Notes: generated from the sequence alone by a model not told the origin. A stretch of 64,000 nt of DNA from a virus (IMGVR_UViG_3300045391_004375:16816-80815), one strand, 5' to 3'; counted from the stretch's first letter, positions 34,973-40,932 are shown. Numbers and translations are program-made.

Positions 34973-37900
34973 ATGGGGAAGCGCAGCCTGCGGGCCCTGC
35001 ACTGGGTGGAGGCCAAGCACCCCCGCGACGACCGGGGCCGCTTCTCCCACAAGGGTGGCCAGAAGTGGGCCCGGAAGGTCGCCGACGAGCTGGGCGCCCG
35101 GTTCGGCGATATCCACATGGGCGCGGCCCCCGGCCGTGAGCCGCAGGGCAAGCTGCAGTCGTCCAAGGCCGGCGGGTTCCTGCTGAACACGAAGGCGGCA
35201 TCGGCGGCCGGCCGGGACGCCGGGATGCGCGCGGAAGGCCACCGGCTGGTCACCGAACTGGGCGGGATCCGCAAGGAGCGGGGCACCGGCGGCGGCAGCC
35301 CCGAGGGAATGCGCGAAGCCCTGAACAACAGCTCGGGCAGCTCCCTGAAGGCGACGGTCGCCCAGCTGCGCACCCACGTGCAGCAAGAAGGCGGCTGGCT
35401 GAAGGAGGAGCGGGCGGCGTCCGCCGGCACGATCTCGGTGGGCGACCTGAAGAAGGGCGACCACGCGAAGCTGGTCGGCCAGGACGCCTACGGCAAGCAG
35501 ATCTCCCTGAACGGCTACGTGCAGGGCGTCGGTGACGTCAACGTCCGCAAGGGCCGCAACCGCACCCCGATGAAGGCTGTTCAGGTGGCCGAGACGCCGT
35601 CGGGGGGCGGCGGCTGGCGGGGCACGGTGTACGTCAAGCCGGACCACATGGCCGAGAAGACCACGCCGAAAGCCGACGTGGCGCGCCTGGAGGGCCGCCG
35701 GCCGGGCGGAACGGTCCAGGTGGTCAACCCGGACGGCAAGGGCGGCTTCAAGGTCGAGGGGCGGATCACTCGGGAAGAGGCCGCCCGGCAGATGGGACTT
35801 GACAAGCCGGTTGGCGGCCGGAAGCCTGGAGGGGTGACCACCACCACGCCGAAGGCTCGCGAGCGGCGCGCCGAAGAACTGCGCATCAGCAATGACCCGA
35901 AGGACAACGGCGCCAAGATCAAGGCCATTCAGGACGGCACGCTGGCCAGCGCCAGCCTGTACCGCAAGGTGGCCGCCGGCCCGAGCGGGCAGCGCTCCAA
36001 CGTCGCCATGGGCCACATCCGGCACACCCCCGACAACCCGTCGGGTGAGTTCCAGATCAGCGACAGCGATGGGCGGCTGGTCGGCTGGGCGTCGCACACG
36101 GTCCGCAATGGCGAGCCGGTATTCTCCGTGCACTCCGAGAACTACGACGGGGAGCACCGCCTGGAAGGCTGGGCTGGGGAGCTGTCCACGGCCGCCGACG
36201 TGCTCATCAACGGTGAACACGCGGCCCGGGGCCGGCACGATTCCGAGCGCATCTCGAAGGGTTCCTTCGAGTCGTACGCCGGCAAGAACATGTCGGTTGA
36301 CCAGCTGGAGCGTCACGGCAACCGGCAGGAACTAGCCAAGGTCAACAAGGAGCTGGAGAACCCGGACCTTGCTCCCACCATCCGCGCCAGCCTGGAGCGG
36401 AAGCGGACCCAGCTGGAGGCCGACTTCGCCGAGATGATCGGTGCGTCGAAGACCCCCACGCCCAAGGCCCCGGAAGCGCCCCAGGATCGGCGCATGGCCG
36501 AAGTTACCCGCATCGAGAACGCGCGAGCCAACTTCGGCAAGGGCGAGGCCTCCAAGGCCACCGAGGTGGGCCGCAAGCCGGGCGGCGGTTACCAGTACAG
36601 CGACTACTCCAAGGCCCACCACGACATGGGCAACCTGACCGTCGCCGAGGCTGGATTGCCCGACAAGGGCGCGGTGCACTCCCAGTACCAGGGGATGCTG
36701 CGCAGCATCAACGAACTGAAGCGGCAGGGCCCGGCCCGGGTCGGCTCGAAAGACCAGTACTACCGGCCGATGACCCGCAAGCTCGAAGAGGCCGCCCAGT
36801 ACGTGCACGAACACGAAGGCAACCCCGACACGGTGGCCAAGCTGCGGGCCCTCGCCGACATCCACCGCCCCCACACCGACACCGCCCCCAAGCTGGTCAG
36901 CGGCGCCGACATCCGCTCGCAGCGGGCCGCCATGGCCTCCAGCCTCGGCGTCGACATGAACGACCCCAACCGGTGGACCCGCAGCCTCGGCGACGTCCGG
37001 CAGGAAGTCATCAGCAAGGCGATTCGGGACATTCCGCAGTACTACACGCACAAAGACCTGATGGACGCCCAGCAGCGGCTCAAAGACACCTCGATCCACG
37101 ACACGGAGGCGATGGACGCCGCCGCGCTGAACCTGCACCGCATCGGCGACGAGATCCGGGCTAAGCAGGACGACCTGAAGGCCGTCGGCACCCGGTTCCG
37201 GACCGCCCTGGAGGCGGCCGGCGGCCTGGCCGACCAGGAGGCCGCCGTCAAGGCCGACCTGCGCCGGATCAAGAAGGAGAACGGCATCCCCGGCGATGCG
37301 GCCATCAAGAAGTTGCCGAACGGTGAGCGGCAGGCCGCCGAGGCCGCCCTGTTCGACATCCAGAAGGCCACCCGGGCGCGGGTGGCCCGGGAGAACAACC
37401 TCAAGCAGGCCAAGATCGGCCGGGAAGTGCTGGCCAAGGGCGGCATGCACCCGGACAACGCCGCCGAGCTGGAAAAGCGGATCAAGAACGTTGAGGGGGG
37501 CGCGACCGCCGAGCAGGTGGCCCGGGACGAGCGCGAACGGGACCTGGCCCTGGCCGTGTGGCGACACGCCAAAGACAACTCCGGCACGACCGGCGAATAC
37601 CCGGCTGACCACCTGAAAGGTCTCGACGCCGAGGAGCAGATGGCGGTCACCGTGATGGCCCGCAACGTCGGCCTGAACGCCGCCGACGAGCTGGCCCAGG
37701 ATCTGCGCGGCCAGAAGGGCCTCAAGGCGCCGAAGGCGAACACCGACTACACCGGGTTCAGCGAGTCGCAGACCCGGGCCCTGCGCTCGATCGAGAATGA
37801 CCCGCTCCGGCACGCCCAGGTGCGGGAAAACTTCGGCCAGGCCAACGCCGCGCGGGCCGCCGACGAGGCGAAGCGGGCCAAGGAGCTGGCCACGGTGTCG

Positions 37901-39018: not shown

Positions 39019-40932
39019 ATGCCAGCCACCATGCCAGCGGCCCGCCTGTCGAAGCTCGACACCCCCGCGCTGATCGAGCAGTACGACCAGGCGATCTCCA
39101 GCCACAAGGGCCGGTACACCGACACCGCGCCCCGGCAGCAGCGCATCAACAAGATCGTCGACCTGTTGACGGAGCGGGCCGACGCCGACGACCCGGACGC
39201 CCTGGCCTGGTTCGAGAAGGAGCAGAAGACCCCCAGCGGGTCAACCGCCCGCAAGGCCGCTCCCGGAGAGCCCACGCTGGGCGTCACCACCTCGGCCCGG
39301 GGCCGCACCACCACGGTGACCCTGCCCGACGGCACCACCGAGCAGCGCACCAGCAAGACCCGCGAATACACGCACGCCGTGGTGGTCACCGCCGACAACC
39401 ACAACGACGCCACCGACCTCCAGGTGGACAACGCCCGCCGGCAGAAGTTCGTCGATGCCCTCCAGCAGTGGATCAACGAAGGTTCGGACACCTCCAAGCT
39501 GAAGGGGTACCCGACCGGTTCCCTCTCCCACGCGGAGCGGCAGGCCGGCGTCAAGCCGACCGAGTACTACCTGCCCGGCTTCGAGCCCACCCGGGTGCAG
39601 GGGCGGACCGGCGACACCTGGGAGAACACGGAGTTCAGCCTCCCGAACTTCAAGGACACCCGCAAGCTGAGCTGGGCGGACGGCCGGACCGAATGGGAGG
39701 AGTACGGCCCCGAGCACGTACTGAAGCGCAACCAGGAAACCATCGACAAGCAGGCCAAGAAGGCTGACCAGCTCCTTGCCGGCCCCCGCTACAGCTACGG
39801 CGTGTGGCGCTGGTCCAGTTCTCCAACGGCCGCCCAGGCCGCCGCAAGCCAGTTCGGCAACTACCGCAACCGCTCCACCCAGGTGATCGGGGTCGGGGGG
39901 GTCGCCGAGGCGAAGAAGGCGACCAAGCCGGTGCTGAGCGCCGAGGAGAAGGCCGCCCAGGCCGAGGTGCGCAAGCTCGCCGCCAAGGCTGCCGAAAAGG
40001 CCCGCAACGAGGCCAGTAACGCCGAATTCGTTCAGCGCAAGCTCAAGAGTGTGGCCGAGCGGGTCACCAGTGGCGTGGACACCCCCGACACTGCGCTGAG
40101 CACCGTCAATGACCGTGGTCTGAGCGTGCTCGCCAAAGAGCTGGGCGTGAAGACCCCGCGCGGCTACCGGACGAACCGGGCGATCAAGGACGCTTACGAG
40201 CGGTCGATCGTCGAGGCGATCATGGCCCGCGCCAACGCGCGCAAGAGCGCCGCCCGGCTCGCCGACGCCGAAGCCGCCGCCCAGAAGGCCGCCGACCGCC
40301 TTGAAGGTGCAGCAGCCCTCAACTCGGCCCCCGCCAAGGTCCGCGACGGCAAACTGTCCCTCCCCGGCTGGGGCGACGGCGAGCGGGCCGACGCCGCCGA
40401 TGCCCTGGAGCACTACCGGGACGTGGGCTTCGCCGACCTCAACCGGGACCTGCGGGCCGGCGTACCCGGCTCCGACAAGGGTCGGCAGACCACCGCCACC
40501 GTCGACAAGGTGATGGCCGCCTCTCCGCTGCCCCAACCGGTCACCGTCCACCGGGGCGTCGAAGACGCCGGCCACTTCAAGGTCGGCCAGGTCATCACCG
40601 ACCCCACCTACAGCTCCACCAGCGTCGACTTCGCCGTAGCGAAAGGCTTCGCCGGCAAGGGCGGGGCGGTCCTGCGCATGCAGGTCCCCGCCGGGGTCGG
40701 CGCGGTCAACCTGTCCGACGTGCCCGGCGCCCGCCCGGACGAACGGGAAGGGGAACTGCTCCTGCAGCGCGGCCTGCGCTACCGCGTGGTCAGCGAATCG
40801 ACCGTCAACGGGGTGCGGGTGTTCGACGTCGTGATCGAACCCGGCCCCATCACGCCGGTCCGGGCGGGCACCGGGCGTCGCCCCGGCGGCAGCCGACCGG
40901 CCGGCCCGCCGAAGTTCCGCCCCCGTGGATGA
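39019..40932 (+). CDS. VIP2/Alt-type ADP-ribosyltransferase (C-terminal domain)
   Basis: Y..LNRDLR, VHRG, YSSTS and EGELLL (R-S-E triad with ExE). Confidence 0.88.
   Translation: MPATMPAARLSKLDTPALIEQYDQAISSHKGRYTDTAPRQQRINKIVDLLTERADADDPDALAWFEKEQKTPSGSTARKAAPGEPTLGVTTSARGRTTTVTLPDGTTEQRTSKTREYTHAVVVTADNHNDATDLQVDNARRQKFVDALQQWINEGSDTSKLKGYPTGSLSHAERQAGVKPTEYYLPGFEPTRVQGRTGDTWENTEFSLPNFKDTRKLSWADGRTEWEEYGPEHVLKRNQETIDKQAKKADQLLAGPRYSYGVWRWSSSPTAAQAAASQFGNYRNRSTQVIGVGGVAEAKKATKPVLSAEEKAAQAEVRKLAAKAAEKARNEASNAEFVQRKLKSVAERVTSGVDTPDTALSTVNDRGLSVLAKELGVKTPRGYRTNRAIKDAYERSIVEAIMARANARKSAARLADAEAAAQKAADRLEGAAALNSAPAKVRDGKLSLPGWGDGERADAADALEHYRDVGFADLNRDLRAGVPGSDKGRQTTATVDKVMAASPLPQPVTVHRGVEDAGHFKVGQVITDPTYSSTSVDFAVAKGFAGKGGAVLRMQVPAGVGAVNLSDVPGARPDEREGELLLQRGLRYRVVSESTVNGVRVFDVVIEPGPITPVRAGTGRRPGGSRPAGPPKFRPRG

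Follow-up and report, generated by a model that had tools for sequence, protein, structure and literature searches.

A recurrent GRxPxG motif at the module junctions of a giant head-locus protein of an uncultured phage

The giant gene and its surroundings

The stretch of DNA considered here, IMGVR_UViG_3300045391_004375:16816-80815, comprises 64,000 nucleotides and is called the window below. It corresponds to nt 16816-80815 of the 80,815-bp genome of an uncultured phage with direct terminal repeats and a G+C content of ~70%. Among the head genes of this phage lie two consecutive open reading frames, ORF1 and ORF2, the second of which extends the first in the -1 frame and carries an ADP-ribosyltransferase (ART) domain. 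Their combined product of ~1988 aa contains five copies of the six-residue motif GR[RK]PGG, which is, judged from sequence comparison, the lineage form of a family-wide motif, GRxPxG. Very probably, selection maintains GRxPxG, at the level of the protein, as a junction motif of head-associated, multi-module cargo proteins of the polyvalent type. The giant gene and its motif copies are laid out as follows (window coordinates; aa numbers refer to ORF1).

34973-38863, plus strand: ORF1, encoding a modular giant protein of 1296 aa with an N-terminal W.E..HPRD..GRF tag
35132-35149, plus strand: looser sixth copy of the motif, GREPQG (aa 54-59), within the conserved N-terminal module PGxxPxGRLxxGKGGLID
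35693-35710, plus strand: motif copy 1, GRRPGG (aa 241-246), directly after folded module B, opening a disordered linker
35816-35833, plus strand: motif copy 2, GRKPGG (aa 282-287), in a disordered linker, 4-8 aa ahead of module D
35858-36469: stretch with module D (aa 296-499), missing from the 97%-identical relative P0005
36569-36586, plus strand: motif copy 3, GRKPGG (aa 533-538), in a coil at the N-terminal edge of module E
38837-38854, plus strand: motif copy 4, GRRPGG (aa 1289-1294), at the end of ORF1 and the ORF1/ORF2 junction, with its GG codons within the slippery site
38851-38857, plus strand: -1 slippery heptamer, G_GGA_AAA
38857-40932, plus strand: ORF2, the -1 frame extension; its start is disordered, and a conserved alpha/beta module, long helices and the ART domain follow
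~40393-40803: ART domain (PF03496, E=9e-10)
40873-40890, plus strand: motif copy 5, GRRPGG, in the disordered C-terminal tail, ~10 aa past the last ART strand

A six-frame regular-expression scan places copies 1-4, beginning at nt 35693, 35816, 36569 and 38837 (aa 241, 282, 533 and 1289), in the frame of ORF1, and copy 5, beginning at nt 40873, in the -1 frame together with the ART domain, at aa 676-681 of the frame spanning window positions 38848-40929. The earlier note on this DNA, made from the sequence alone, had reported these five copies, had judged them far above chance and conserved at the protein level, and had assigned the last codons of copy 4 to a slippery site; all five are present at exactly those positions in coding frames, and the other points were borne out as well. 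From the composition of the combined product, 0.0014 copies of GR[RK]PGG would be expected, and 20,000 shuffles of this product yielded one copy in 26 cases and two copies in none. The codons differ between the five copies (GGCCGCCGGCCGGGCGGA, GGCCGGAAGCCTGGAGGG, GGCCGCAAGCCGGGCGGC, GGACGGCGGCCGGGGGGA and GGGCGTCGCCCCGGCGGC). An origin as a DNA-level repeat was rejected, since the conservation is at the protein level and the codons differ. Over the whole 80.8-kb phage genome, the six frames contain 10 matches to GR[RK]PGG, five of which are the copies described here, and ORFs supported by G+C content at third codon positions (GC3) contain eight matches to GR.P.G, six of them in ORF1/ORF2.

The five copies share one polypeptide only if a -1 frameshift happens. 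The 3' end of ORF1 reads GGA CGG CGG CCG GGG GGA AAA GCG TAG. Here, the final pair of Gly codons in copy 4 (GGG GGA), together with AAA, forms a heptamer of the X_XXY_YYZ type just ahead of the stop codon of ORF1, and from the heptamer on the -1 frame is open and reads ...GGKSVGPTES.... Three phage genomes keep GKA followed by a stop on G_GGA_AAA, and then GKS[VL][GS]P in the -1 frame (window 38851-38863; L009 9690-9701; L010 14492-14506), and an ORF end in GKA is found in at least 10 proteins of the family (P0032, P0035, P0036, P0040, P0053, P0073, P0099, P0114, P0016 and P0023). It would seem that cargo ORFs are joined by a programmed frameshift throughout the family. In three lineages, the motif directly precedes the frameshift junction, i.e., as GRRPGGKA-stop in the described phage, GRAPGGKA-stop in L009 and its close relative, locus L030, and GRSPGGAGKA-stop in P0023.

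The order of the surrounding genes is small terminase (TerS), large terminase (TerL), portal, tagged 202-aa protein, ORF1/ORF2, MuF-like protein, scaffold and major capsid protein (MCP), located as follows.

29201-29758: small terminase, head module
29784-31733: large terminase, head module
32332-34365, plus strand: SPP1 gp6-like portal protein with a Gly/Pro/Arg-rich C-terminal tail (GRPIGGG..GRPARPG)
34362-34970, plus strand: 202-aa protein with an N-terminal HPRD..GRF tag and also a degenerate GGRRRPGD
40925-41881, plus strand: MuF-like minor head protein, a separate ORF overlapping the ART stop
~42433-43587: acidic scaffold protein, head module
43818-44900: major capsid protein, head module

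The W.E..HPRD..G[RK]F tag is present in both post-portal proteins (window 34362-34400 and 35003-35044) and in nearly all giant homologues. The MuF-like ORF lies downstream of the ART domain in another frame, with its own GTG start, and no toxin is fused C-terminally to MuF. In this respect, it differs from the MuF polymorphic toxins, in which the toxin is fused to MuF (Jamet et al., 2017). The C-terminal tail of the portal protein (window 34270-34362) is rich in Gly, Pro, Arg and Gln (GRPIGGGPPGGQPRNGRPARPGQPPRGGQQ); relatives have similar tails, and the version in L011 ends in GRRPAGRP-stop. Upstream of the window, in nt 1-16800 of the genome, genes for a sugar-nucleotide epimerase/dehydratase, an RmlD-like protein, a methyltransferase and three glycosyltransferases are clustered, which suggests modification of virion or host glycans.

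The motif among homologues and at module borders

About 110 homologues, nearly all metagenomic, were collected by word-based and exhaustive HMMER searches. ORF1 has no match among the Pfam and PHROG families, and a tblastn search with ORF1 against 50,697 GenBank phages gave zero matches. Searches for IMG/VR loci with single sequences (ORF1, portal) returned nothing, and profile-based searches succeeded. Many homologues are 1000-2400 aa long and have only some modules in common with ORF1. The 67 homologues of at least 500 aa contain 71 copies of GRxPxG, against 4.3 expected from composition, and permuted control patterns mostly gave 3-8 matches each in the same proteins. The copies are distributed over 25 of the 67, with a maximum of six per protein and a density of 0.8 per 1000 aa. 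Not one copy is found in the 43 single-module homologues of less than 500 aa (8,491 aa in all), where ~7 would be expected at the density of the long proteins. Some of these motif-free short proteins bear an HPRD-type tag.

Four positions of GRxPxG are invariant. Position 3 varies freely, with T, R, A, K and others, and G, S, A, T, D or Q is found at position 5. The motif is thus kept among homologues, as GRxPxG, and the protein-level conservation claimed earlier extends beyond the described phage. The terminal di-Gly, which the earlier note saw in all five copies, turned out to be lineage-specific: other lineages have GRxP[S/A/T/D]G, and in four homologues GRRPDG takes the place of copy 3, within a well-conserved block that reads R[IV]ENARxNFGKGEASK...GRRPDGxYKYxDYSKA. 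Copy 1 aligns with GRAPGG in P0010/P0014 and is lost in two other homologues. A subset has a longer form, GRxPGGx(1-3)[VL]DT[PS]R[VA]..GG. Since the VDT[PS]RV continuation is also found without the motif, it looks like the start of another module. Overall, the motif adjoins differing modules: ...RLEGRxPGG closes module B, and GRxPxG-VDTPRV, GRxPGG-ESTDDF and GRRPDG-YKYxDYS open others.

The composition of the motif brings DNA binding to mind, in that an Arg within a Gly/Pro turn could enter the minor groove, as in an AT-hook, and tether the cargo to the packaged genome. AT-hooks, too, have Arg in a Gly/Pro context and are repeated in disordered linkers. The linkers of the giant proteins are basic and rich in Pro, Gly and Thr, with SPKK-like text (TPKA/TPRV), and several copies read RGRxP. 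Furthermore, MuF-type head proteins bind DNA, as is established for gp7 of SPP1. However, GRxPxG has one additional residue between R and P, and the canonical GRP core of AT-hooks (RGRP) is neither present in it nor enriched, with 6 matches to GRP..G against 71 to GR.P.G. Membership of the AT-hook family was rejected because the motif is G-R-x-P instead of the invariant G-R-P, and no AT-hook family match was found. As single-module cargo is also motif-free, such a hook is quite unlikely.

The invariant Arg might alternatively be modified by the ART domain of the protein itself. Read by eye, the ART residues HRG...SSTS...EGE form an R-S-ExE configuration, as is typical of T4 Alt and other arginine-specific transferases, and the domain matches PF03496. 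T4 Alt is a packaged ART and modifies itself; by analogy, the motif could be an acceptor site. Against this, the ART-bearing homologue P0017 is motif-free, in many homologues rich in the motif the ORF concerned shows no ART, and nothing connects the choice of acceptor by ARTs with the motif. Auto-modification thus appears extremely improbable as the function of GRxPxG.

The copies of one protein resemble each other in flavour, i.e., in the residues at positions 5-6. For this analysis, two module-embedded instances were excluded and proteins with at least two remaining copies were considered. GG is found in every copy of the described phage and of P0007, P0010, P0013, P0014, P0016, P0024 and P0057, and S, A or T followed by G in every copy of P0006, P0008, P0009, P0021, P0044 and P0099. 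Agreement at position 5 within a protein (G versus non-G) was 0.94, against 0.50 after shuffling, and none of 20,000 shuffles reached the observed value (P<5e-5). A search with P0021 for a phage of the SG/AG type gave only an unrelated locus. Since the flavour is uniform at non-homologous sites that are encoded by differing codons, these data suggest that one lineage-specific factor reads all copies of a protein.

By local homology, ORF1 is divided into at least eight separable modules, which occur at differing positions in differing proteins. Local alignments put the bounds of module A at aa 1-82, B at 150-246, D at 296-445 and E at 483-657, followed by F, G and H. Pfam and PHROG searches with each module gave nothing above noise. 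Module D also exists as a free-standing protein of ~140 aa in dozens of metagenomic clusters, and these proteins begin ~4-15 aa past the position of copy 2. Motif copies lie close to the breakpoints of the mosaic alignments: a breakpoint lies no more than 10 aa away from 70% of them, against 43% for random positions, and no more than 20 aa away from 92%, against 60% (Mann-Whitney P=4e-6). This supports the location near module boundaries that had been proposed for the motif. Both this location and the restriction to multi-module proteins would be expected of polyprotein cleavage sites.

Such mosaicism could mean that the motif is a passive hinge or recombination scar, i.e., part of linker cassettes kept by module exchange, without any reader. 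Motifs near mosaic breakpoints would be expected in that case, and P0005, although 97% identical, lacks module D through an indel that starts a few residues after copy 2 and is bordered by the repeated linker text TTPKA..RR.AE..RI.N. Yet, this repeat of P0001/P0005 adjoins the motif and does not include it. A scar is also difficult to reconcile with conservation at the protein level by differing codons, with four positions that stay invariant while position 3 varies freely, and with a flavour shared by non-homologous copies of a protein. It is therefore regarded as rather unlikely.

Structure prediction agrees with a location of most copies in exposed joints. An AlphaFold2 model of ORF1 aa 1-660, built from a 55-sequence alignment, had a mean predicted local distance difference test (pLDDT) score of 76.5, with confident blocks at 151-239 (all-beta), 291-490 and 530-660, and pLDDT <50 at 42-150, 241-265, 279-288, 494-500 and 523-528. 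ORF2 was modelled less well, with a mean pLDDT of 62. Low confidence and a lack of secondary structure mark the initial ~140 residues of this 694-aa frame as well as its final 28 (667-694), so that copy 4 falls at a disordered junction, and copy 5 (676-681) within a disordered tail. Thus, four of the five copies are in predicted disordered linkers or tails adjoining folded modules, in line with the expected position between domains. Copy 3 departs from it, as it is located at an ordered module edge, where the block 531-540 has a mean pLDDT of 84. Foldseek searches of the 660-aa model against the PDB gave weak matches only, module B being SH3/Tudor/eIF5A-like and module D SsgB-like.

Possible cleavage or docking, and candidate proteases

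What the motif does may be explained, tentatively, by processing: GRxPxG is predicted to be an endoprotease site in a virion-associated polyvalent cargo protein. This prediction is favoured because the motif is limited to multi-module chains, sits in exposed joints, ends in a small residue plus Gly, as many protease sites do, and has a uniform flavour within a protein, and because processing is expected for polyvalent proteins. We infer the cleavage and, with it, the scissile bond, the timing and the protease: a single lineage-specific factor, most likely an endopeptidase, would cut at or just after the small-residue/Gly pair, either while the head matures or once the protein has been ejected into the host. 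Approximately, this would free a first piece, aa 1-246, with the tag and the SH3-like module, then a peptide of 41 aa, module D at ~27 kDa, a block of modules E-H at ~83 kDa and, finally, the ORF2 module with the ART domain, minus a 13-aa tail. The protease could be a host enzyme, the JAB peptidase of the phage or, in relatives, an HPRD-tagged, anthrax-lethal-factor-like zincin. The features concerned, together with the leaders of the capsid and scaffold proteins, are the following.

24290-24727, plus strand: stand-alone JAB/JAMM peptidase, desampylase-like, with an intact E...HxHx7SxxD motif
L009 4094-5743 and L011 5887-7368: HPRD-tagged, lethal factor (LF)-like zincins, also represented by P0112 and P0116
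Window 43839-43955 and 42433-42550, and 6917-7060 and 5900-6100 of L029 (Streptomyces phage Rooney): leaders of capsid and scaffold

Among the GC3-supported ORFs of the genome, all of which were scanned, JAB is the sole peptidase that Pfam recognises. An archaeal desampylase is its best NCBIfam match, although one below the cut-off. The earlier note had linked the di-Gly of the copies to JAB/JAMM proteases, and direct cutting by the phage enzyme after each di-Gly is indeed worth weighing: its JAMM motif is intact, it resembles a class of enzymes that cuts after ...GG, every copy of this lineage ends in GG, and JAB is present in the three complete genomes with giant cargo genes that were compared (G000, G002 and G003) and absent from two cultured relatives that lack the giant gene (Zukovirus and Rooney). 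Canonical JAB/JAMM peptidases, however, recognise their substrates through a beta-grasp fold. The JAMM peptidases that act on ubiquitin-like (Ubl) proteins ending in GG, such as the desampylase HvJAMM1, Mec+ on CysO and QbsD on QbsE, cut after the C-terminal di-Gly. The ...GGKA end of ORF1 resembles such a Ubl precursor with a short extension, and the phage encodes a desampylase-like JAB; unlike in those systems, no ubiquitin-like beta-grasp was found before any copy in the AlphaFold models or by Foldseek, the elements ahead of the copies being an SH3/Tudor-like all-beta barrel with a short helix, disordered coil, helices or the ART domain. A Ubl reading of the copies was rejected on this ground, and a Pfam scan of the ORFs of the genome detected no E1-like or Ubl gene.

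Other observations also argue against the JAB link. Di-Gly is not family-wide and is replaced by SG, AG, TG or DG in other lineages. The head module does not include the JAB gene, which is located 8 kb upstream. G003 retains JAB, but its giant protein of 1797 aa has no motif and no GKA frameshift end. Capsid and scaffold proteins share an N-terminal leader, ...G.P[IV][WYF]...GG, which ends in GG in all four relatives compared against motif flavour; in Streptomyces phage Rooney, both leaders end in GG and no JAB is present, and Zukovirus KimJongPhill has no leader, no giant gene and no JAB. Direct cleavage by JAB after the di-Gly is thus very unlikely.

The alternative enzyme, the HPRD-tagged LF-like zincin (PF07737, HEFGH), is encoded between the portal and the giant gene in L009/L030 and G003. 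In L009, P0112 and P0116, the zincin itself bears GRxPGG at residues ~5-10. A GRAPAG in the zincin ORF of L011 was discarded, as it lies upstream of the start codon in the overlap with the portal gene.

Several observations weigh against the proposed cleavage. The LF-like zincin is missing from the described phage and from G002. G003 holds both JAB and the zincin, yet its giant protein is motif-free, and neither enzyme tracks the presence of the motif across G000-G003. Between copies 3 and 4, 750 aa with several modules contain no motif at all, and cuts at the N-terminal copies of the zincins or ahead of the 13-aa C-terminal tail would free short peptides only. Copy 3, modelled as ordered (pLDDT ~84), may be partly structural. 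The breakpoint statistic may be inflated because alignments may tend to stop at a shared motif, and the agreement in flavour may reflect just two or three clades, with few independent switches. No candidate protease tracks the motif, and a host enzyme may be the one that reads it.

Perhaps the copies are not cut at all and act as docking peptides that bind the capsid interior, scaffold, portal or MuF and hold the cargo in the procapsid by avidity. Encapsulins, which have the HK97 fold, hold their cargo via cargo-loading peptides. Multiple copies in disordered regions and one flavour per protein, corresponding to one binding partner, would suit this explanation, as would the copies adjoining the HPRD tag at the N-termini of the tagged zincins, the portal tails of similar GRP..GG composition and the subset with an extended, conserved, strand-like continuation, GRxPGGxxVDT[PS]RV. 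On the other hand, HPRD-tagged single-module cargo, which is presumably packaged too, is motif-free, as is the giant protein of one relative. Furthermore, VDTPRV is also found without the motif and resembles the start of a separate module, and docking would not need the copies to be confined to junctions. Docking is, therefore, somewhat unlikely, and the packaging-signal role suggested in the earlier note as an alternative to processing is improbable in view of the tagged single-module cargo without motif.

A broader version of the cleavage proposal would have GRxPxG as the cleavage code of an unrecognised polyprotein strategy of tailed phages, served by a dedicated, co-evolving protease that in this lineage might be JAB. 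This is a long shot. If true, JAB would set a precedent among JAMM enzymes as a protease of viral polyproteins or of head maturation, and cutting would free an Arg-specific ART together with several uncharacterised effector modules.

Relation to known systems and significance

Short recurrent cleavage sites between the units of virion polyproteins are known from eukaryotic viruses. The adenovirus protease cuts xGG↓x, pS273R of African swine fever virus GG↓x and I7L of vaccinia virus AG↓x. These sites share with GRxPxG their recurrence, their shortness, their GG, AG or SG end and their position between virion polyprotein units. They differ from it in lacking an upstream G-R-x-P and in being cut by clan CE cysteine proteases, none of which was found here. 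The pre-toxin motifs of polymorphic toxins, i.e., VENN of CdiA and DPxGL of Rhs, are likewise short peptides at a module border and at recombination breakpoints, and the Rhs junction motif DPxGL is also a cleavage site. VENN and DPxGL occur once per protein, before the C-terminal toxin, whereas GRxPxG occurs up to six times and next to many module types. The processing peptidases of polymorphic toxins have been reviewed, with a section on JAB (PMC3482391). The capsid-targeting sequence of T4 and the LxE sites of gp21 are unrelated to GRxPxG.

A close resemblance is seen to the polyvalent proteins of phages and conjugative elements, which are predicted to be packaged, injected and possibly processed, processing having been shown for the Dar proteins of P1 (Iyer, Burroughs, Anand, de Souza, Aravind 2017, PMC5512222). 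Like the protein described here, they are very long, consist of many modules, are encoded among portal, MuF and head genes and contain ARTs, and like its family they show module shuffling and a frequent zincin partner of the lethal-factor type (PMC5512222). The ORF1/ORF2 product is a large polypeptide of unrelated modules with an effector enzyme, its gene lies in a virion/packaging context, and GRxPxG is a short motif that recurs in exposed segments, where folded units end or begin. There are also differences. The modules other than the ART match no described family; the ART is of the R-S-E exoenzyme type, whereas an H-Y-D type is reported for polyvalent proteins, and neither a recurrent junction motif nor a frameshift join is mentioned for them (PMC5512222). 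T4 Alt, an Arg-specific ART that is processed and injected, is, like the described ART, of the R-S-ExE type, head-associated and probably delivered with the DNA (PMC5512222). The described ART differs from Alt in being the C-terminal module of a frameshift product of ~2000 aa. Literature searches with the motif strings returned unrelated papers only, and the two key comparative papers mention no junction motif. The protein class is known; in the literature that could be searched, no account was found of the junction motif, of its lineage-specific flavours or of the way it is coupled to a conserved -1 frameshift join.

Polyvalent proteins are thought to be the first weapons that a phage delivers into the cell. 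For the loading, release and activation of such giant multi-enzyme chains, GRxPxG offers a concrete handle. It predicts points of recognition or cutting, sets module boundaries for expressing the uncharacterised domains singly and provides a sequence signature for finding such cargo proteins in metagenomes. If cleavage is confirmed, polyprotein processing, known in eukaryotic viruses, would extend to the injected effectors of tailed phages.

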